Shown: one piece after another, positions 32,264 through 43,391 of the stretch
Numbering within the stretch: the stretch's first letter is position 1
Layout: every line of letters starts with the position of its first letter
Virus record (IMG/VR): IMGVR_UViG_3300042691_047309
Span: 64,001-128,000 of that record
Reading direction: 5' to 3' (one strand)
Length of the DNA stretch: 64,000 bases
Source of the DNA: a virus
Notes under the pieces: generated by a model
Told to the model about the DNA's origin: nothing
Database searches by the model: none
Seen by the model: only the letters and a program-made list of their open reading frames with translations
Made by a program: the position numbers and the translations under genes

Positions 32264-33826
32264 TTATTGAATTATTATTTTTATAGTTTTATTTTGATTT
32301 ATTAAGTAATACTGACCCGGAGTACTGATACTAACAATTATATCATTTGATCTAATTTCTGTAACTAAACTTCCGACACTATCAAATATTTTTGAATCTG
32401 ATGGTAAATTTGCTATATTAAAAATGCCATTGTTAGGATTCGGATATACACTAAATTCAGAGTCACTTAAAGTATTAAAATGATTACCGTTATTACCCTG
32501 TCCATTGCCATTATTAGAATTAGAATTATTATTGATTACTCCGTTTTGACTTCCTAATTGTGAATTGTCATACCCTGGATTAGAAGGATCGAATCCGTCG
32601 CTATTTCCGTGTCCATTATTATTGTCATTATCTATAACCAAAGTCATTTCATAAGCAATTCTTACTGCTTCTGCTGAGTTTAATCTACCAGAACCCAACT
32701 TTCCTAAATATTGTGGATTTATTGAATAAATATCCACAGCTGTTATTCTAAGAATAGAATCAATTTCTGAATTTGTAATATTTGGATTCACTGATAACAT
32801 AAGAGCAATTGTACCAGATACATAAGGAGCAGCAAAAGAGGTTCCGGATGAATATGAATACCAACCCGGTGCAGCACTTAGTGGAACATTGTAACCAGGT
32901 GCGCAAATATCCACAGTTGAATTATGTTGATGTGTTGATCCATTTTGAGAAATATGACTATCATTTTGACCAACACTAGTAACTGAAAAAACGTGGTTGT
33001 AAGCGGCTGGATAAACTAAGTTATCAGGTCCACCACAAGTTGAGCCATTGCCAGCAGATGCTACTATAAATGTTCCGTTATTCCATACTTCGTCTATTGC
33101 TAATTGAGCGTAATAGTTATATGTGCAACCAGAAGCCCAACTCAGATTTATTACTTTATAACCATTATAAGATGCTTTTAACATATCATTATAATTCATT
33201 CTAAAAAGACCAAGTGAAGAATTATATCCAATTGAACTTATTCCTGTTGAGTTATTAGTATTCCCAGCAGCTGTAATTGCAACAGCTGTTCCGTGTGTTT
33301 TTGTAGATGTATTTGTAACATCATAGTATTTTACTTTTCCTACTAATTCTTCGTGATTTTGATAGAAGTTTTGGTCTGAAATAGCTATTCTAACAGATGT
33401 ATCACCGGTAGTATAAGACCAGGCGCCTTCGGCATTTATTAAACTAAGTGCCCAGTTATTAGAGAAAGAAGATGTGTAATCGTTAGGAAGTTCTAAAGTC
33501 TCAAATTTAGGAGCGATTTCAACCTTAGAGACTACAGTCGATTTGTTTGTAAGATTTTGTAATAATTCTACTTCATTACAGTTACAATCTATTTGATAAA
33601 CATTTTGTAATTTTTGATTTTTAGAGTCAGGAAATACTTTTTGAACATTTGTAATTTGGTATGTTTCTAAAACAGAGTTTAATTCTTGATTTTGAGAATA
33701 CAATTTATCACCTCTCATTTGTGGTACATTTTGGGACTCATTAATTGTCATCCAAACTGAATTTTGAGCCATTAAGTTTACACTTACTATTAAGATTGAT
33801 GTGATAAGTAGAATTAATTTTTTCAT
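32264..33826 (-). CDS. Secreted S8 subtilisin-like serine protease with T9SS type A C-terminal domain
   Basis: Signal peptide ending MA|Q; triad AISD / HGTAVA / GTSFAAP; C-terminal VYPNP..G.F...PG.Y....K.I.Q. Confidence 0.92.
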   Translation of the reverse strand: MKKLILLITSILIVSVNLMAQNSVWMTINESQNVPQMRGDKLYSQNQELNSVLETYQITNVQKVFPDSKNQKLQNVYQIDCNCNEVELLQNLTNKSTVVSKVEIAPKFETLELPNDYTSSFSNNWALSLINAEGAWSYTTGDTSVRIAISDQNFYQNHEELVGKVKYYDVTNTSTKTHGTAVAITAAGNTNNSTGISSIGYNSSLGLFRMNYNDMLKASYNGYKVINLSWASGCTYNYYAQLAIDEVWNNGTFIVASAGNGSTCGGPDNLVYPAAYNHVFSVTSVGQNDSHISQNGSTHQHNSTVDICAPGYNVPLSAAPGWYSYSSGTSFAAPYVSGTIALMLSVNPNITNSEIDSILRITAVDIYSINPQYLGKLGSGRLNSAEAVRIAYEMTLVIDNDNNNGHGNSDGFDPSNPGYDNSQLGSQNGVINNNSNSNNGNGQGNNGNHFNTLSDSEFSVYPNPNNGIFNIANLPSDSKIFDSVGSLVTEIRSNDIIVSISTPGQYYLINQNKTIKIIIQ

Positions 33827-34086: not shown

Positions 34087-36246
34087 ATGATAAAGTTTTA
34101 TTTATTTTTATTATCAACCATTTTATTGGTCACAAATTCGTTATCACAAATAAATGAGGGTTTTGAGAGTGGTCTACCCGCTAGCTATACAACTACGACA
34201 TCTTATACACTAAGTTCCGGAACTTGGACTGGTCAAGCAAGTGGTGTTATTGGAAACACAACTGCAACTTGGATTAAAAGTGGCACTAGATCCTGCCAGC
34301 TTAGGTCACAGGTTGGATCACAGATAACCACTCCGACTATTACTCAAACAGTTGGCACAGTAACGTTTTGGGCATCAAGAACATCAGGTAGTGGAAGTTC
34401 TTTACAAGTAAATTACTCTACAGATGGTGGGACTACTTGGGTAGCTGCTACCGGATCACCCTTTAGTCTAAACACAACAGTAAGTCAATACACAGCTACT
34501 GTAAATACGACGAGTGTGAATGTCAAATTACAGTTTTATAGAACAGCAGGAACCGTTAATATAGACGATGTTGTTATTAATAAAAATAATAATTCCGTAT
34601 GTTCAACAGTAACAACACTTTCTTTACCATCAACCGTTGGATCAACGACGACTACAGGAACACAGACAACTTGTGGAAAAGTAAATGATTTTCCGGCTGG
34701 TTCTTTTGGATCCTCACTTTACGGTGATGGTCAAGATGCTGTTTGGCAAATTGATGTTCCGGTTAGTGGAGGTAATTATAAATTCGATATAGGAGGTGCT
34801 GGAACTTATAAAATATTATCTTTACACTCTTCTTGTTCCCCAACAAGTGGAAACGCTTTAAATTGGATCACAACTTCATCAGGAACAACTGGTAATTTCT
34901 CACAAAATCTTACAACGGGAACATACTATCTATGGGTAGATACGTGGCCATCTCCTGATTGTGGTCAGTACTCCATAACCATTACAAGATTAGCAAATCC
35001 ACCAGCTCCAAGTTGTATTTCATCACCGACATCTCCAACTAACGGTCAAACAGATGTCAGTACAGCCCCAACGTTATCATGGCCAACCGCATCTAACGCT
35101 ACAAGTTATGATGTATATTTTGGGTCTACTTTACCGATCACACCAACGATTAACGTTACTACAACATCTTATACTCCAAGTTCATTATCAATCACTACAA
35201 CATATTATTGGAAAATAGTACCTAAAAATTCTTCGGGTGAGCCTACAGGGTGTTCAACATGGTCTTTTACTACTTTAACACCAATTACTAATGACGACCC
35301 TTCAGGATCAACAACTTTAATTGTTAATGATCCTTTAGGTTATAAAACTTTTACGAATGTTGGATCATCAAATACGACAACAGAATCTTCACCTACATGT
35401 GCATCATATAATGGTGAGGATGTTTGGTTTAAGGTAGTTGTACCGAATGGGATAACAACGCTTGATTTTGATACTCAAACAGGTGGTATAACTGATGGTG
35501 GTATGTCTATTTACAGAGGAACTATTGGTTCTTTAACTCAAATTGAATGTGATGATGATGATGCATTAGATGGTCTAATGTCTTGGATATATCGAGAAGA
35601 TTTTACTCCCGGTGAAACAATTTATATCAGATTTTGGGAATATGGTGGTGGTACAGGAACATTTAAGATTTATGTTAGTACTCCTCAAGCACTACCAGTT
35701 GAACTAATTAGTTTTAATGCAACTTGTTCCGATGAAGGTATATTAATTAACTGGAAAACCGCTTCTGAACATAATAGTTCCCACTTTACACTTGAGAAGT
35801 CAAGAGATGGCGAAGATTGGTCTCAAATTTATACCGAACAAGCAGCTGGTAATAGCAATCAAATTATTACTTATAGTTTCACAGATAAAAACACTATTAA
35901 CGGTATTAATTACTATAGATTGAACCAATATGATATAGATGGTGTTTATGAACAATACGGACCTATTTCTGCAAATTGTTTAGAAAAAACAAAAGGATAT
36001 TTTTCTACTTTTCCGAATCCAAGTTTTTCAACATTTAATATTACTGTCAATAATGAAAGTATTATCGGTGAATCTATTATAGAAATAGTAGATGATATTG
36101 GTAGAAAAATAACAAATAAAAATGTCACTGTAAGTCCTGGAATAAACCTTTTCAACTTAAATATAGATATCGAACCAGGTATTTATTACATAAACATTCA
36201 TAATGATTATTTTTCTACCGATGTAATAAAACAAATTATAAGGTAA
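34087..36246 (+). CDS. Secreted T/S/G-rich multidomain surface protein with T9SS type A CTD
   Basis: Signal peptide LS|Q; FN3-like segment (LSW...ATSYDVYFG...TYYWKIVP.N); DVWF domains; LPVELISF...W.TASE.N...YYRL.Q.D.DG; FPNP...GIY. Confidence 0.9.
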   Translation: MIKFYLFLLSTILLVTNSLSQINEGFESGLPASYTTTTSYTLSSGTWTGQASGVIGNTTATWIKSGTRSCQLRSQVGSQITTPTITQTVGTVTFWASRTSGSGSSLQVNYSTDGGTTWVAATGSPFSLNTTVSQYTATVNTTSVNVKLQFYRTAGTVNIDDVVINKNNNSVCSTVTTLSLPSTVGSTTTTGTQTTCGKVNDFPAGSFGSSLYGDGQDAVWQIDVPVSGGNYKFDIGGAGTYKILSLHSSCSPTSGNALNWITTSSGTTGNFSQNLTTGTYYLWVDTWPSPDCGQYSITITRLANPPAPSCISSPTSPTNGQTDVSTAPTLSWPTASNATSYDVYFGSTLPITPTINVTTTSYTPSSLSITTTYYWKIVPKNSSGEPTGCSTWSFTTLTPITNDDPSGSTTLIVNDPLGYKTFTNVGSSNTTTESSPTCASYNGEDVWFKVVVPNGITTLDFDTQTGGITDGGMSIYRGTIGSLTQIECDDDDALDGLMSWIYREDFTPGETIYIRFWEYGGGTGTFKIYVSTPQALPVELISFNATCSDEGILINWKTASEHNSSHFTLEKSRDGEDWSQIYTEQAAGNSNQIITYSFTDKNTINGINYYRLNQYDIDGVYEQYGPISANCLEKTKGYFSTFPNPSFSTFNITVNNESIIGESIIEIVDDIGRKITNKNVTVSPGINLFNLNIDIEPGIYYINIHNDYFSTDVIKQIIR

Positions 36247-36248
36247 TT

Positions 36249-36283
36249 AAAAAAACGAGTTATTTAAATAACTCGTTTTTTTT
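36249..36283. terminator. Intrinsic terminator
   Basis: AAAAAAACGAGTTATTT/AAATAACTCGTTTTTTT palindrome. Confidence 0.85.
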
Positions 36284-36359: not shown

Positions 36360-38258
36360 ATGAGAATTATATTTAAACATAATTTATTATTTCTATTTTG
36401 TTTATTGACAAACTTTTTACTTGCACAACCAGCAAATGATAATTGTTCTGGTGCTCAAAATTTAGGAAATTTACCAACACCTGCATCTTGCCCAAGTGGT
36501 ATTGGAACATCAGTAAATGTCACAGGAACCACAGTTGGAGCAACACCTACAAATCCATATAACTACCTTTTAGGTTGTCAAACTGGTGGAAATCAACCAG
36601 CACCAGCTAATGACGTTTGGTATAGATTTGTCGCAACCGGAAATCAAGTAAATATAAATATAACAGCAGGATCTCCGGTATTAGCAAATCCAGCAATAAC
36701 ACTTTGGACAGGAACTTGCGGTAATCTAACCGGAGTTGGATGTGATAATAATGGAACAAATGCTGGTGCTAATTCTGCAATTTTTGAGCCTTTAACATCT
36801 GGTCAAACTTATTATATTCAAGTATCTGGCTCTACATCAACGGCTACTGGTAACTTTAACCTTTCTGTAAATTCACAAAATGATTGTTCAGATTGTCTTC
36901 AAGGTTCTTATATAACTGCTACTCCTGCTCCAACAAATGGAACTTATCCACCAAATACTCAAGTGACTTTTTGTTATACAATCACTTCTTTTAATCAGGT
37001 AAGTGCAAACTGGATACATGGAGTGATACCTTCTTTTGGTGCTGGTTGGAATCCAACAACTTTACAATCAGTGAGTGCTCCAAATGCTTCCGCGGGATAT
37101 GTTTGGACTTGGACTAATGGACCACTGGGTTTAGGTTGGTATGTTGATTATGATCCAGTAGGACCAACCGGTCCAGATGGAAATGTCACTAATAACTATG
37201 GAACTTCTAATATAAATGGAACGGGAACTTGGACTTTTTGTTGGAGAATTACAACTGATCCAAATTGCACCGGTGGAACTGACCTTTCGGTAGATGTCAA
37301 TACAACGTCTGATGGGGAGACCGGTAACTGGACTTCTGTTGCTTGTCAAGACGACCCAGTTTATCAATTTTCATCCACATTAATATGTTGCACAAATCCA
37401 ACTGTAACATTATCCAATCAAACTATTTGTCAGGGTCAAAGCGTGACTCTAACTCCTACGGTTAGTCCTGGTGGTGGAACTTACTCTTGGTCATCTGGTC
37501 AAATAACTTCTTCTATTACGGTTACACCTTCAACAACTACATCCTATACCGTTACATATGCGACCGGTTCTTGTTTTTCAACTGCGACTGCTACGGTAAC
37601 TGTTAATACACAAACTACACCAACATTTACACAATTAGGACCTTTCTGTTCAGGAACTTCATTTACCTTACCAACAACATCAAATAATGGAATCACCGGT
37701 TCTTGGTCACCTGCTATTAACAATACATCAACAACAACTTATACATTCACTCCAACTGCTGGTCAATGTGCTTCAACTGCAACAATGACAGTTACAATAA
37801 ATCCACAAACAGTTCCAACATTTACGCAAGTAGGACCTTTTTGTTCTGGAACTTCATTTACTTTACCAACAACATCAAATAATGGAATAACAGGAACTTG
37901 GTCTCCTGTAATCAATAATACCTCAACAACAACTTATACATTTACACCAACTGTCGGTCAATGTGCTCAATCAACTACGATTACAATAACAATAAGCCCT
38001 CAAGTTACTGCTACTGTCACCGGAACAAATCCAACTTGCGACAACGCCTGTGATGGAACAGCAACTACCACACCACTTACCGGAACTCCCCCTTACACTT
38101 ATGTATGGACTCCTTCTGGTGGTACACAAACCATCACAAATTTATGTGAAGGAACTTATAATGTAACTATCACTGACTCTTTTGGATGTCAAACAACAGG
38201 AAGTGTAACCCTAACAGACCCGGTTGCACCAGTGTTGGGTCCAATTAGTCATGACTAA
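36360..38258 (+). CDS. Secreted SprB-like adhesin (Ig-like repeats plus SprB repeat) lacking a T9SS CTD; ends PVLGPISHD
   Basis: Signal peptide LA|QPANDNC; DVWY domain; two 65-aa repeats; SprB-type NPTC...DGTA...GTPPYTY.W...L..GTY.VTITD..GC. Confidence 0.88.
37610..38000 (+). repeat. Two tandem 195-bp (65-aa) adhesin repeats
   Basis: [47 protein letters not shown] starting at about 37620 and 37815. Confidence 0.92.
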
Positions 38259-38275
38259 AAATAAAAAAAAGAAAA

Positions 38276-38863
38276 ATGAAAAAACTATTAACTTCTCTAG
38301 TTGTTTTGTTTGTGAGTGTTGTTTCCTACTCTCAAACTTTTACAACTACTCAACCAGACACGGTGTGTTTTGGTTCGACAACTCCTTCAACTTATCAAGT
38401 TGCTAACATTGGTTCAGGAACTTATACTTGGACCATTCCTGCTTGCGCATCTATTGTATCTGGGCAAGGAACAAATCAAATTCAAGTCAATTGGTCTAAC
38501 TGTCCAGCTGGTTTAATTCCTAATGCTGTTTCTGTTACATATGCATCTCCAGCTCCAGCTAACTGTCCCGCTCTTCCAGTTGATATGGATGTTTTAATTT
38601 ATCAAGTTGTACCGACAATCACAGCTTTAGGTCCATTTTGTGAATCTGATCCTTGTGTGACTTTAGTTGGAACTCCAGCGGGTGGAACATGGACTGGATT
38701 AGGTGTTTCAGGAAACCAATTCTGTCCTGATAACGTAGCTAATGGAACTAACGCTACATCAACAGTTACTTATACACTTACAAATGGTGGATGTACATTT
38801 ACTACATCGGTAGTTGTTCCGGTTTATGGAACTCCTACACTTTCACCTATACAACACGATTAA
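38276..38863 (+). CDS. Secreted two-domain PKD/Ig-like protein; ends PTLSPIQHD
   Basis: Signal peptide YS|Q; DTVC...Y.W.I....I.SGQGTN.I.V.W PKD-like; GPFC...L.GTPAGG.W.G.GV. Confidence 0.85.
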   Translation: MKKLLTSLVVLFVSVVSYSQTFTTTQPDTVCFGSTTPSTYQVANIGSGTYTWTIPACASIVSGQGTNQIQVNWSNCPAGLIPNAVSVTYASPAPANCPALPVDMDVLIYQVVPTITALGPFCESDPCVTLVGTPAGGTWTGLGVSGNQFCPDNVANGTNATSTVTYTLTNGGCTFTTSVVVPVYGTPTLSPIQHD

Positions 38864-38880
38864 AAATAATATAAAGTAAA

Positions 38881-39447
38881 ATGTTGAGATTATTAAGTTT
38901 CATATTTATAATGATGTGTTTTGGTTTGTTTTCACAACAAACTTTACAAATATGCCCTGGTGAAAGCGAGACAGTTACTTATTGGACTGAAACTACAACA
39001 CCGGGAGAGATAGTGTGGTCTGTAAATGGAACATCTTATTATAGTGATCAACTTGTTATGAACTGGACACAACCTGGAACTTATAATATATCAGTCACTC
39101 AAACAAATGGAATTTGTGAAGATAGTAAATACTTTACAGTTATTATAAGTTCTTGTGATGATTTAATTTATTATGTTCCTAATTCATTCACACCGGATGA
39201 TGATAATTTTAACAACATATTTCAACCTGTATTCACAGAAGGATTTGATCCATTTGATTTTCATTTAACTATATTTGATAGATGGGGTGAGATTATATTT
39301 GAGTCATATGATGCCTCAAAAGGATGGAATGGATATTATGGAAACAAAAAGTGTCAAGATGGGGTATATACCTGGAAAATCGAATTTGGAAGACCTGGTA
39401 TAGATGATAGAGAAGTTATAGTAGGACACGTAGTTTTAATAAGATAA
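38881..39447 (+). CDS. Small secreted protein with T9SS type B (gliding-motility-associated) CTD
   Basis: Signal peptide FS|Q; YVPNSFTPD.D..N..F...L.IFDRWGE..F......GW.G.......DGVY.W...G.V.LIR. Confidence 0.92.
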   Translation: MLRLLSFIFIMMCFGLFSQQTLQICPGESETVTYWTETTTPGEIVWSVNGTSYYSDQLVMNWTQPGTYNISVTQTNGICEDSKYFTVIISSCDDLIYYVPNSFTPDDDNFNNIFQPVFTEGFDPFDFHLTIFDRWGEIIFESYDASKGWNGYYGNKKCQDGVYTWKIEFGRPGIDDREVIVGHVVLIR

Positions 39448-39476
39448 AAAAATCCATCAGAAATGATGGATTTTTT
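39446..39476. terminator. Intrinsic terminator closing the adhesin operon
   Basis: AAAAAATCCATC-AGAAAT-GATGGATTTTTT. Confidence 0.85.
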
Positions 39477-39499: not shown

Positions 39500-39865
39500 A
39501 TGGATAAGTCGAGAATTAATGATATGGTTGATAGAAAAATAATACAGTCTTTTCAAGAAGGATTTTCTATTGGTTCTATTCAATCAGATCTTAAAGTCAG
39601 AATAAGAAATTTCACTAACACTATTGGAAAGGATAGTAGTGTGAATTATATGCAGTTATATGATACTAAATTTGAAGATATTCCAAACATTCGTCATAGA
39701 TATGGTATAACCTACATAAAACAGTGTCAAAAAAGATTACAGGATTTAGATTGGATTATTGAGAAGAAATCAAAATTTAGTAATATGACTTATTCTAAGG
39801 TATTTAAATTAATTCAGTTTAGAGAAAAACTCGAATCTACTGCAAAAATTTATCCATTCAAATAG
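39500..39865 (+). CDS. Hypothetical protein
   Basis: ORF track; TATATTTG at 39488, 4 nt before the ATG. Confidence 0.75.
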   Translation: MDKSRINDMVDRKIIQSFQEGFSIGSIQSDLKVRIRNFTNTIGKDSSVNYMQLYDTKFEDIPNIRHRYGITYIKQCQKRLQDLDWIIEKKSKFSNMTYSKVFKLIQFREKLESTAKIYPFK

Positions 39866-39896
39866 TTTGTAAATTTTAATATTTTCCTTATATTTG
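39866..39896 (+). promoter_or_regulatory. Bacteroidota-type promoter TTTG-N19-TATATTTG
   Basis: Both consensus boxes with canonical spacing; ATG 4 nt downstream. Confidence 0.8.
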
Positions 39897-39900
39897 TTGT

Positions 39901-40122
39901 ATGAAAATCAATAAAGGAAACCTCTGGACAATTCTTGAAAAATATGACTCAAAAGACTACGATGGTCTTTGTAATGGTCTTTCTCGTATAATTCAAGGTA
40001 AATCTACTTCTGGTGATCTGCTTGATGTTTTCACTTACATGGAAAAAATTCAAAAAGAAGATAGAGACATTATCGAAAACGAAATCGGAAACGATATCAC
40101 GAATGTACTTTTCTGTATCTAA
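39901..40122 (+). CDS. Hypothetical protein
   Basis: 73-aa ORF directly behind a consensus promoter. Confidence 0.75.
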   Translation: MKINKGNLWTILEKYDSKDYDGLCNGLSRIIQGKSTSGDLLDVFTYMEKIQKEDRDIIENEIGNDITNVLFCI

Positions 40123-40196
40123 TTTTCATGTAACATCATGATGATATAACTATATTATATGTTATGGTTTTTTAAAGTTTAATGATAGTGGATTTT

Positions 40197-40937
40197 TTAT
40201 AGTCTAATCCATTCTTTAAACCTCAATAAAGATTCTTTTAATGTTTCTACAAAATCAAAATCAATCAAGAATTGACCGAACTCTTCAACATATTTTTCTT
40301 TTGACTCATCGTTGGGGTTTTTTAGAAACTGCCAATTAAATGATAATTGAGTAGGTGTTTTAAATCCAAAGAAACTAAGAACTTCTTTTTCTAATTTGAC
40401 AGCTTCTGAACCATTCCAGTTATGACCAACTGCAATTACTCCGGCTTCTTTATTTTTAAGTAGATTACTTTCACCAAGTGTTGTGTGTCTGTTTTCAAGC
40501 CAAGTCAATCTTTCAATAAGTGATGTATAAATAGCATTCATTTTACCCCATCTTATTGATCCAAAAAAGATAACTATATCAGCGTCAAAAATAGCATTTG
40601 CTACTTTATACATTTCATCTGATTTGTTGTTAAGTGATGCCCAACATCTTATATGACCTGTTGGATTCTTTTCTTTATCTTTAAGAATGGCATCTTTTAA
40701 TCCACAAGTATTTCCTCTTTTAGTTGAAACATTACCTTCACAAGAAAATATTTTAAGCTTTGCAACATTTATTATTTGACATCTATCGCTTCCTAATTTT
40801 TTCATAATCTCCTCAGCAATGATAGAAGACTTCGGAAGCTCTTTATCACCAGACCATCTATTCGATGTGGTTAAGAAAAGAATTTTCTTTTTGTTATTCT
40901 TCTTTAGATAATTGTAAAGTCTTTTTAACTCGGTCAT
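40197..40937 (-). CDS. Flavodoxin-like / NAD(P)H-dependent FMN reductase family protein
   Basis: ILFLTTSNR...KSS; KI..CEG; DEM..V...I.DAD.VIF.GSIRWG; TTAATATATA upstream. Confidence 0.8.
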   Translation of the reverse strand: MTELKRLYNYLKKNNKKKILFLTTSNRWSGDKELPKSSIIAEEIMKKLGSDRCQIINVAKLKIFSCEGNVSTKRGNTCGLKDAILKDKEKNPTGHIRCWASLNNKSDEMYKVANAIFDADIVIFFGSIRWGKMNAIYTSLIERLTWLENRHTTLGESNLLKNKEAGVIAVGHNWNGSEAVKLEKEVLSFFGFKTPTQLSFNWQFLKNPNDESKEKYVEEFGQFLIDFDFVETLKESLLRFKEWIRL

Positions 40938-41001
40938 GTTTTATATATTAAAAGTTTTGAATACAATTTTTTATTAAATATAAAATTACTTAAAAGTCTT
41001 T

Positions 41002-41036
41002 GATAAAAAAAAGGACTCTAAGTCCTTTTTTTTATC
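41002..41036. terminator. Intrinsic terminator
   Basis: GATAAAAAAAAGGACT-CTA-AGTCCTTTTTTTTATC. Confidence 0.8.
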
Positions 41037-41982
41037 CGTGTCTTAACGTCTCTATACCAGGAAACTTAGCTTTTAAATCTTCACTAACAGTTTCAGTAAT
41101 TACTGATGGAGGAAGTGTATTTCTTTGAAACTTCCAATGTAGTGCTTCCCAATCTTTAATTTCTTGGTCTAATTTCATTAAAGATGATTCTTCTAAATTA
41201 ACTTCTTCTATTTTTATTTGAATAATTTTTTCAGCTTCTTCTACATCAGATTCTCTTTGTAAAAGTTCTTCTTCTTTTCTTTTCAACTCTTTTGAAAGTA
41301 CTTCTAAATCTTTTTCTTTTTCAGTGACTAATCTCAAATCTTTGTCAATTTTTGTTTGAAGATCGGCATATTTAACATCTAAATCTTTTGCTGATTCTAA
41401 AATACTTCTATCAAAGTTTCTTTCCTTTTCATTAAGGTCTTGAATTTTATCTTCTAAATCAATTTGTTTTTCAGTAAGGTCTCTAGATCTTTGTCTTAAC
41501 TCATCTTCTTTTTTATCAAGCGATTTGAGCTCCAGTTTATGATCTTCTTCTCTTTTTTCAACTCTCTTTAAACGAATATCAATCTCTTCTTCTTTATCTT
41601 TAATTCTTCTTTCTCTATTGTTTAGGTCAATTTCTTTCCATTCAACTTCTCTTATTTTACTCTCATCAATATTAGAAACTGGTCCAGAATTATGTTGAAT
41701 TGAAGAAAGTACCATTTCTTCAATAAAGGGAATTAGTTTTTTATGAAATTGAGAAGGAGTTGGAAACTTTTGAGCTTTCATGTGAGTCAGTAACTCGCTT
41801 TTCCAGTCAATGACTTCAAAAAATTCTGGATTATTATCAATGATATCTTTATCAATTGGTATTATCTCTGATTTAACAGTGTAGTTATACTCTTGTAAGA
41901 TAGTTCCAACTTTAAGTATAAAGATTTTTTTATCAGGGCTTAAATACTGAAACTCCTTAATAACCTTATGCTTAATTTTCAT
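41032..41982 (-). CDS. Long coiled-coil hypothetical protein
   Basis: E/K/R-rich heptad region over about 170 aa. Confidence 0.8.
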   Translation of the reverse strand: MKIKHKVIKEFQYLSPDKKIFILKVGTILQEYNYTVKSEIIPIDKDIIDNNPEFFEVIDWKSELLTHMKAQKFPTPSQFHKKLIPFIEEMVLSSIQHNSGPVSNIDESKIREVEWKEIDLNNRERRIKDKEEEIDIRLKRVEKREEDHKLELKSLDKKEDELRQRSRDLTEKQIDLEDKIQDLNEKERNFDRSILESAKDLDVKYADLQTKIDKDLRLVTEKEKDLEVLSKELKRKEEELLQRESDVEEAEKIIQIKIEEVNLEESSLMKLDQEIKDWEALHWKFQRNTLPPSVITETVSEDLKAKFPGIETLRHG

Positions 41983-42042
41983 TTTAAAAAATATATTTTA
42001 AGTTATATATAAAAAACCAGTTTTTTAGTTTATATTTGTGAA

Positions 42043-42516
42043 ATGGAATCTTTAGATAGGGAGTATAATCAAATTGTTAATCTTACTAAATTCAATGTTA
42101 ATTTCAGTAAGTATGTGGATAGCTGCGATCTTTTAAAACAAAGTCCTGACTATATTCTTGAGAAATATAATCACTGGATTGGTTTTGGACCAACAGTTGA
42201 AAAGAAGTTATATACACCAGGTGATATGACAGATTTTTTCAATAAATATTGTAAAATTTGGAAAATAGACACAGAGAGTTACCATAAATTAAAAAATATA
42301 CTGATGTATTTACATTATACTCAAAATTTGAACATCTTAAGGATGTCTGAAAAATTTGAAGAATATATCGGACCAATGACGATGATATCAGATACCTCAG
42401 ATAAACCAGGATTACATCATAAAACAAATGATTTCGTTAATAATATTTTAGAAGGAAATAAAAACAATATTAAAGTTATTTTAAGAAATATGAAAATTGA
42501 TAATATAGTGCGATGA
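42043..42516 (+). CDS. Hypothetical protein with RNMKIDNIV tail
   Basis: ORF track; TATATTTG at 42031. Confidence 0.75.
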   Translation: MESLDREYNQIVNLTKFNVNFSKYVDSCDLLKQSPDYILEKYNHWIGFGPTVEKKLYTPGDMTDFFNKYCKIWKIDTESYHKLKNILMYLHYTQNLNILRMSEKFEEYIGPMTMISDTSDKPGLHHKTNDFVNNILEGNKNNIKVILRNMKIDNIVR

Positions 42517-42884
42517 AATATAAAGACAAATCATTTTTAAAGTATCAAGAAAAACAACGTGATGGTGAAGTTGGGTATTGGTCTAATAGGTCTGAAAGAC
42601 AAATTCGTAGAGAAAGAGAACACAGATTTTCAACTTTTTATCAAAAGTTTCTTATTGGAAAAATTGACAAGTATTGGTGGAAAAACCTAAGAGATTCTGA
42701 TAAAGAAAAAATTATATCACTTCACTATATACAAGTAGATGCTATTTCATCGAAAGATTTAGATAGATGGTATTCTGATCCTGTATTTGATACTTGGTCT
42801 GAGTGGTTTGATTATATCAAGACAACTTTTAAACCAAATAAAATATCATTAAGAGAGGATAAACTCAAAGTTTTGGGTATATAA
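42513..42884 (+). CDS. Hypothetical protein with REDKLKVLGI tail
   Basis: ORF track; ATGA overlap with the upstream gene. Confidence 0.75.
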   Translation: MKYKDKSFLKYQEKQRDGEVGYWSNRSERQIRREREHRFSTFYQKFLIGKIDKYWWKNLRDSDKEKIISLHYIQVDAISSKDLDRWYSDPVFDTWSEWFDYIKTTFKPNKISLREDKLKVLGI

Positions 42885-42911
42885 TAAGTAACAATAAAAA
42901 ACAAAATAAAA

Positions 42912-43391
42912 ATGAAAACAATTAAATTTATCTTTTTGGCCATAGTAGCCGCAATTTCAATGACTTCTTGTACTGAGAATTACTCTAATGGTGAGCGTAT
43001 CGGTATGATTACAAAATTCTCTCAAAAAGGACTTGTATGGAATTCTTGGGAAGGAACACTCAACACAACTCAAACTGGTATGAACAGTGCAACTCCTTTC
43101 GAATTCTCTGTTGATAATGATGTGAACGATCCTAAAGTTATCGCTACTTTAGATTCGGCTGCAACAAATGGTTGGAAAGTCAAAATCAAATATCACGAAA
43201 CTTTTGGAAAGAATTGGCTCTCTAACAGAGGTGAAACTAACTACTTTGTTAAAGAGGTTCAAGTCTTAGATAGAGATCCAATTGGTAATCTTTTCGGTGA
43301 CTCTTCAAAAAATAACAAATCAAATTGTGATTGTAAAACCGGTGGAAAAGTCATTGATACTATTTATGTTGTAATTGATAGAACTAAATAA
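42912..43391 (+). CDS. Putative lipoprotein
   Basis: Lipobox-like AISMTSC; YS.G.R.G.ITKFS.KG...SWEG.L. Confidence 0.8.
   Translation: MKTIKFIFLAIVAAISMTSCTENYSNGERIGMITKFSQKGLVWNSWEGTLNTTQTGMNSATPFEFSVDNDVNDPKVIATLDSAATNGWKVKIKYHETFGKNWLSNRGETNYFVKEVQVLDRDPIGNLFGDSSKNNKSNCDCKTGGKVIDTIYVVIDRTK

Follow-up and report, generated by a model that had tools for sequence, protein, structure and literature searches.

Type B cargo proteins of the T9SS (type IX secretion system), such as SprB with its partner SprF, Fjoh_3952 with Fjoh_3951 and PG1035 with PorP, have a Sec signal peptide together with a CTD (C-terminal domain) of the CHU_C/TIGR04131 kind, and they stay bound to PorP/SprF-like shuttles, as set out in PMC9143113 and PMC12618676. 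Orphan type B cargo, which has no linked shuttle gene, uses an orphan shuttle (PMC12618676). In type V pili (FimA/Mfa1), a C-terminal donor strand replaces the N-terminal strand of the neighbouring subunit by protease-mediated strand exchange, and the last residues of the donor are essential (PMC13655056). In chaperone-usher pili, a short strand of alternating hydrophobic residues, supplied in trans, fills up an incomplete immunoglobulin (Ig)-like fold, and the pairing of strand and groove sets the order of the subunits. We analyzed a window of 64,000 nucleotides (nt), by which we mean the whole stretch of DNA studied here, positions 64,001 to 128,000 of the IMG/VR virus record IMGVR_UViG_3300042691_047309. 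It contains three adjacent genes, A, B and C, for secreted proteins, of which A and B end in nearly the same nine-residue tail and have no T9SS CTD, and C is almost solely a type B CTD with one truncated PKD-like domain. To our knowledge, the current model of the T9SS holds that every cargo has its own CTD. We give an even chance to the reading that A, B and C form one three-piece surface adhesin of head, connector and base, which would be assembled by strand complementation in trans and exported through the CTD of C.

The source record is a 176-kb linear sequence of an uncultured giant phage of Flavobacteriales (CheckV completeness 73%), of which the window is a part. The open reading frame (ORF) map of the window showed that the three genes all lie on the plus strand, each in a different frame and separated by gaps of 17 nt. 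Gene A (36360-38258, + strand) encodes the putative head subunit of 632 amino acids (aa), gene B (38276-38863, +) the putative connector of 195 aa, and gene C (38881-39447, +) the putative base of 188 aa. The tail of A, PVLGPISHD (38229-38255, +), is immediately followed by the stop codon, and the tail of B is PTLSPIQHD (38834-38860, +); among the ORFs of at least 50 aa in the 176-kb record, only A and B have an HD or HN ending. When A and B were compared with Pfam and NCBIfam, there was no match to Por_Secre_tail, CHU_C, TIGR04183 or TIGR04131 at E <= 0.1. Each of the three proteins has, as read from its sequence, its own Sec-type N-terminus with a K/R-rich n-region, a hydrophobic helix and an ending ..S/A followed by Q, which is the Bacteroidota signal-peptidase pattern. 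The AlphaFold 2 (AF2) models placed N-terminal helices at residues 2-13 of C, where the h-region is followed by ..FS and then Q, and at residues 3-15 of B. A hairpin terminator common to the three genes, with a 13-bp stem and a subsequent T run, was found by the terminator scan at 39447-39476 (+). Since another hairpin with a T run (36254-36283, +), which was recognized by eye and is absent from the terminator scan list, separates the trio from an upstream gene for a 719-aa protein, the trio is probably a separate transcription unit.

The domain composition of the three proteins was then compared. The type B CTD of C (aa 99-188; 39175-39444, +) matched CHU_C (PF13585) with 48.4 bits (cut-off 27) and TIGR04131 with 45.3 bits (cut-off 35), and C alone is thus a bona fide T9SS type B CTD substrate by family criteria, as far as its sequence tells. 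Its only passenger is a PKD_6-like domain that begins just 5-6 residues ahead of a conserved Cys, and the mature protein starts with a pyroGlu-type Q and 4-5 residues before this Cys. The first domain of B is PKD_6 (PF19408; aa 22-76, profile positions 6-60) with 36.7 bits against a gathering cut-off of 25. The N-terminal domain of C is homologous to it (hhalign probability 94%) and has 3-4 fewer residues before the Cys; for the phage C, the relation to PKD_6 was shown solely through this alignment. The second domain of B (aa ~112-184) is Ig-like; giant adhesins of 1,000-6,300 aa contain 10-70 copies of this kind of domain, at 34-50% identity to it. Protein A contains a GBD_T9SS_assoc-like domain at aa 26-165 (a sub-threshold match), a domain at aa 185-330 in common with the 197-aa short forms of A, Ig-like repeats and one SprB-like repeat, followed by the tail. 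A 195-nt (65-aa) Ig-like unit in A is tandemly duplicated (37620-37995, +; 1.9 copies, 84% matches); the duplication is evidently recent, and the head subunit is accordingly seen as still changing in length.

The AF2 model of B (predicted local distance difference test score, pLDDT, 87) consisted of two beta-sandwiches, in which the polar residues 21-27 did not form a strand and the last 11 residues (185-195), including the tail, were coil; the protein ends 9 residues beyond the last Ig strand. The model of C (pLDDT 85.5) showed a single sandwich and the CTD. A Foldseek search against PDB returned generic Ig tandems, the best match of B being the shaft of the T9SS-secreted grappling hook GhpA (9flp) with a TM of 0.51. 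No family for A, B or C was found in PHROGs. The first-pass annotation of this DNA had started from nearly identical endings on two proteins devoid of a CTD, a third protein made of one Ig-like domain and a type B CTD, a signal peptide on each, and a shared terminator, and all of these were borne out.

The relation of the C-terminal tails to the PKD_6 domain was analyzed with a position-specific scoring matrix (PSSM) built from 150 unsplit PKD_6 N-termini of giant adhesins (consensus P-x-P-x-T-I-S-G-P-x-x-V-C-x-G). Four sets of tails, from A and B of phages and from A and B of the cellular homologues described below, were slid along the PSSM and compared with shuffled tails. The register in which the last tail residue lies at -4 from the conserved Cys was the best or near-best in all four sets, with z-scores against shuffles of 10.3, 6.0, 4.8 and 4.3, values that overstate independence, since the sequences within each set are related. 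In the -4 register, the Ile that does not vary in the tail falls on the equally invariant Ile of the T-I-S-G-P first strand, and the tail stops about where mature C starts. The S-G-P of the unsplit domains is replaced in the tail by x-H-[ND] and a free carboxylate. Because of the PSSM match and because it ends near the start of mature C, the tail looks like the detached first strand of the PKD-like domain of the next subunit, which would have been left upstream when an ancestral adhesin was split.

The gene architecture, its conservation, the identities of the domains and the match of the tail to the PKD_6 first strand are seen directly in the sequences; docking, co-export and a role for the phage we infer along the following lines. 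The topology fits a chain of head, connector and base, A being a donor only, B both an acceptor and a donor, and C an acceptor only. A, B and C would be exported by Sec to the periplasm and fold there; the tail of A would dock on the first domain of B, and the tail of B on the sole passenger domain of C, in both cases by beta-strand complementation. The folded complex would then be recognized through the type B CTD of C and carried out by the host T9SS, and a PorP/SprF-type partner of the host would hold it on the cell surface. For the phage, the cassette presumably serves to remodel the surface of the infected cell, which is a speculation.

Besides the relatedness of the tail sequences within each set, several points weigh against this scheme. 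Some sets also fit the PSSM well in another register (+2 or 0), which leaves more than one possible strand assignment. The tail and the N-terminus of mature C together are 1-3 residues longer than the unsplit domain, and B retains a polar pseudo-first-strand (LTTTNP) that the tail of A would have to displace or supplement. Our literature search found no report of CTD-less proteins leaving by the T9SS with a CTD-bearing partner. No match to porP/sprF (PF11751) was obtained in the 73%-complete phage record, which is a weak test, as control genomes also gave none. The lack of a linked porP/sprF gene beside C is compatible with C being an 'orphan' type B substrate in the sense of PMC12618676.

To what extent the tail is conserved was examined in homologues of B. 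A large protein collection contained 380 metagenomic homologues of similar length, and the tail P.L.PI.H[ND] or a one-residue variant was found at the end of all of the best 120, which were inspected; in one of them it is shortened by a single residue. The five complete small relatives of B in a 50%-identity representative library (45-64% identity) all keep the tail or a close variant. An alignment of 32 B sequences reaching down to 45% identity showed no variation at P, L, I and H in the tail, whereas the 8 residues ahead of it vary. This conservation is far beyond chance as judged from these alignments. Each invariant residue is encoded by 2-4 synonymous codons, and selection thus acts on the peptide; a nucleotide signal, such as a ribosome-binding site or a coupling element for the next gene, was therefore rejected as the cause. 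A generic inter-domain linker was rejected as well: the 143 giant adhesins that carry B-type Ig repeats contain 64 relaxed P.[LIVM].P[IVL] sites, none of which is followed by x-H-[ND], and the motif P-I-x-H-[ND] was found in none of the 143 proteins. At position -3 of the tail, Q is nearly invariant in B, whereas the residue varies in A. When phage and cellular sequences are taken together, the tail reads P-x-x-I-x-[H/F/Y]-x-COOH, the phage form being P-x-L-x-P-I-x-H-[N/D].

It could be argued that the tail is a mere leftover of the linker and first strand of a split ancestral adhesin, that it has no binding role, and that A and B act alone in the periplasm or in vesicles. Such a relic would explain why the tail is equivalent to the beginning of a PKD_6 domain, and undivided giant adhesins built from these repeats occur frequently. 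A relic is expected to decay, yet P, L, I and H are invariant over 45-100% identity under free synonymous change and with varying neighbours; in unsplit domains, S-G-P stands at that place and H-[ND] was not found, and in both phages and cells the genes have retained their order and close spacing. We consider a functionless tail very unlikely.

We compared 44 related phage loci from IMG/VR. The intact A-B-C trio was present in ~40 of them, the others being cut at a contig end or having one gene missing or truncated. The intergenic gaps were 6-21 nt, and the stop codon of B mostly overlaps or directly abuts the start of C. In L001:5574-6158, C is preceded by a gap of 195 nt and is just 129 aa long when read from its first ATG; it may start at a non-ATG codon, or a frameshift or a sequencing error may be the cause. 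The ~1 kb ahead of B in L031:3934-5001 (a 262-kb contig) has no A ORF of at least 80 aa from an ATG. The head of A occurs in several versions, including the 197-aa single domain, an ALK/LTK-type Gly-rich domain, SprB repeats preceded by a large, unrelated N-terminal part, and the GBD-like form of the window, and despite these differing heads every version ends in [IV]-L-x-P-I-x-H-[ND]. In one clade (L030, L033-L042; e.g. L038:2007-9966), the trio lies between the tail sheath/tail tube genes and the baseplate hub/tape measure genes; in other phages, small unrelated genes surround it, and that of the window phage is also located elsewhere. Given these differing positions, the cassette is mobile within phage genomes and behaves as a moron. 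A read-through or frameshift fusion of the three genes was rejected, as no two of them share a frame, every one begins with a start codon and signal peptide of its own, and the division into three is conserved.

The retention of the tail on unrelated head domains would also be understandable if a host factor recognized it as a sorting, retention or processing signal in its own right, and if the link to C were one of shared function only. Such a reader might be a protease or ligase of the periplasm, a shuttle or a component of the outer membrane. Its exact C-terminal position, the invariant His and the terminal N/D (W/Y/F in cells) are typical of peptide tags, and the tail is coil in the AF2 monomer model. 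On the other hand, a general signal does not account for the finding that the tail always stands directly upstream of a gene that opens with a PKD_6-like domain whose first strand is absent or degenerate, nor for its scoring as a PKD_6 first strand; no other ORF of the phage record has the tail, and no candidate reader gene is linked. Such a signal thus seems unlikely to us. The first-pass suggestion had been a donor strand or a ligation signal. What persists of it is a candidate functional donor element, kept on unrelated heads, matching the PKD_6 first strand, coil in the monomer model, and followed by a C that starts just after the strand.

The first-pass annotation had missed that the trio is not a phage peculiarity, as a conserved operon of this kind is present in chromosomes of Flavobacteriales; a phage-only invention was therefore rejected. 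A larger version was found in a one-genome-per-species scan, in a metagenome-assembled genome of this order (G001; L045/L063, G001:C1). The gene order there is guaA, a gene for a LysM protein, A' (a GEVED head with the ending ..PPIIHY), B' (639 aa, ..PGPIQHN), C' (PKD and CHU_C), lolA and ftsK. The same neighbourhood was seen in a second genome (G021; L068, G021:C1:229000-243000), with the tails ..PVLAPISHN and ..PVTGPISHW. A back-translated tail pattern run on 401 Flavobacteriales genomes was too strict and missed G001; of its four matches, one led to the G021 operon, two end no long ORF, and one has a Trp codon at the stop position. A homologue search with A of G021 gave five matches and was uninformative.

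The LysM-domain protein encoded upstream of the cellular A (445-461 aa) was found in 67 of the 101 sampled genomes of the order; it is not carried by phages and may or may not belong to the system. We inspected the regions downstream of its gene in 14 Flavobacteriales genomes and found five further trios with I-x-H-x tails (e.g. ..TPAISHN with ..TGPINHW) and three with relaxed tails (..PGAITF, ..PGPIIFN and ..PSIISD). The order LysM, A, B, C is present in at least eight Flavobacteriales genomes beyond G001 and G021. Two cellular loci (L109 and L111, in G043 and G056) have a two-gene form, in which a single tail-bearing protein of 1,224-1,329 aa (..PGAIGF/..PGPIGF) is followed by C; a system can thus have one tail-bearing subunit or two. 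CHU_C was detected in all five cellular C proteins tested (46.7-65.7 bits). For PKD_6, cellular C proteins gave matches of 22-31 bits; in four of the six tested, the match follows the signal peptide directly and begins at profile position 9-14. In G001 and G021, C is followed by lolA and ftsK and not by porP/sprF.

In our preferred reading, the operon arose in the chromosomes of Flavobacteriales and was picked up by giant phages as a moron with exchangeable heads. The domain order of the trio resembles that of one long type B CTD adhesin, and one might ask whether the trio is just one adhesin gene in decay or wrongly assembled, i.e. a pseudogene broken by stops or frameshifts. However, each piece has a complete signal peptide and a start codon, and the same split in these ~40 phage loci and in at least 10 cellular genomes refutes this explanation, the probability of which we regard as practically nil.

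Two further predictions of the first-pass annotation, that the tail is conserved in homologues and that the tail-bearing genes are syntenic with a type B CTD gene, agree with the B homologues, the phage loci and the Flavobacteriales operons. The PIxHD motif proved correct as the phage form, and the strict form had to give way to the broader consensus. The annotation had further proposed a tip, shaft and anchor that polymerize into a filament. It is conceivable that B polymerizes head-to-tail through its own tail and N-terminal domain, giving a filament of one tip (A), a shaft of several B subunits and an anchor (C). B has both a candidate acceptor and a candidate donor, the tails of A and B are both P-I-x-H-[ND], so that the tail of B might fit the acceptor of B, and the structure that B matches most closely is the shaft of Ig domains in the T9SS grappling-hook fibre GhpA. 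However, the overlapping or abutting stop of B and start of C, together with the mid-operon position of B, suggest roughly equal (1:1) synthesis, which is not that expected of a major shaft subunit. The nearly invariant Q at -3 in B, which is variable in A, suggests different sockets, and the two-gene cellular variants have a single tail-bearing subunit. A polymerizing B is, in our opinion, quite unlikely, and of the original proposal the logic of head, connector and CTD-bearing base is retained and the shaft is not. Since B and C are apparently translationally coupled, since A and B differ in the constraint on the -3 position of their tails, and since two-gene variants exist, we argue for an A-B-C complex of defined make-up rather than a polymer; the shared P-I-x-H-[ND] core as such is compatible with a polymer.

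The trio shares with T9SS type B cargo the Sec signal peptide and CHU_C/TIGR04131 CTD of C, and with type B adhesins the Ig and PKD domains and SprB repeats, which are here located in partner subunits. Unlike type B cargo, in which passenger and CTD are on one chain, the trio has its passengers on two CTD-less proteins with a common C-terminal peptide. The roles of tip, stalk and anchor in type V pili would have parallels in the trio, whose tail forms coil in the AF2 monomer and matches the first strand that the acceptor domain lacks. Type V pilins have a transthyretin-like two-domain fold, are lipoproteins and need gingipain cleavage, whereas A, B and C are predicted signal-peptidase-I substrates composed of PKD/Ig domains and anchored via a T9SS CTD. 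None of the signal peptides of the trio has a lipobox Cys at +1, A, B and C gave no match to the fimbrillin families of Pfam, and the AF2 models of B and C are PKD/Ig sandwiches. The acceptor of the trio is made without the strand, and no protease step is therefore implied. In type V pili, the tip has no donor strand and the basal subunits donate, whereas in the trio the distal head would donate and the base would only accept.

The trio resembles chaperone-usher pili in the completion of an Ig-like fold in trans. Their donor is an N-terminal extension that fills in for a missing C-terminal G strand, whereas the candidate donor of the trio is C-terminal. They also need a periplasmic chaperone and an usher, neither of which is among the neighbours of the trio (other T9SS cargo and small phage genes). 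The giant single-chain adhesins and fibres of Bacteroidota (PKD_6/Ig_7/SprB repeats; GhpA, 9flp) are built from the same domain families as the trio, but they are single polypeptides and have no P-I-x-H-[ND]. The trio is a member of neither the type V nor the chaperone-usher family, and its resemblance to type V pili is the closer one. Within the literature searched, the proposed assembly route is new for type IX secretion and resembles known donor-strand assembly, and the search found no precedent for phage-encoded T9SS cargo cassettes of such a kind.

We put it somewhat below an even chance that the T9SS can export pre-assembled multi-subunit adhesins, in which CTD-less subunits are hitched to a minimal CTD subunit via a naturally split Ig domain, and that a plug-and-socket locus of Flavobacteriales was captured by giant phages, its heads being swapped for modular display. 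If this is true, a hitchhiking route is added to the T9SS, by which CTD-less proteins assemble on a CTD-bearing partner and leave with it, and the predicted T9SS secretome grows, since CTD-less proteins are currently ignored. It would also be a third, independently evolved use of donor strands in surface fibres, with a polarity opposite to those of chaperone-usher and type V pili. Surface display in Bacteroidota could make use of the ~9-residue tail and its socket as a naturally occurring split-domain tag. The wide conservation of a head-swapping cassette in giant Flavobacteriales phages points to an infected cell whose surface is deliberately remodelled, speculatively for receptor masking, for exclusion or for attachment to particles.

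The trio lies in a cluster of phage-borne T9SS cargo. An S8 subtilase with a type A CTD is encoded at 32264-33826 (minus strand), and the upstream 719-aa protein, also with a type A CTD (34087-36246), belongs to the same cluster. A third type A CTD protein is encoded elsewhere in the record, outside the window (G000:C1:143006-143194). Downstream of the trio (39500-43391), several small proteins have at their end an R-x-x-K-[IL]-x-x-[IL] helix, which has no relation to the tail of the trio; an example is the product of 42043-42516, with the ending RNMKIDNIV.

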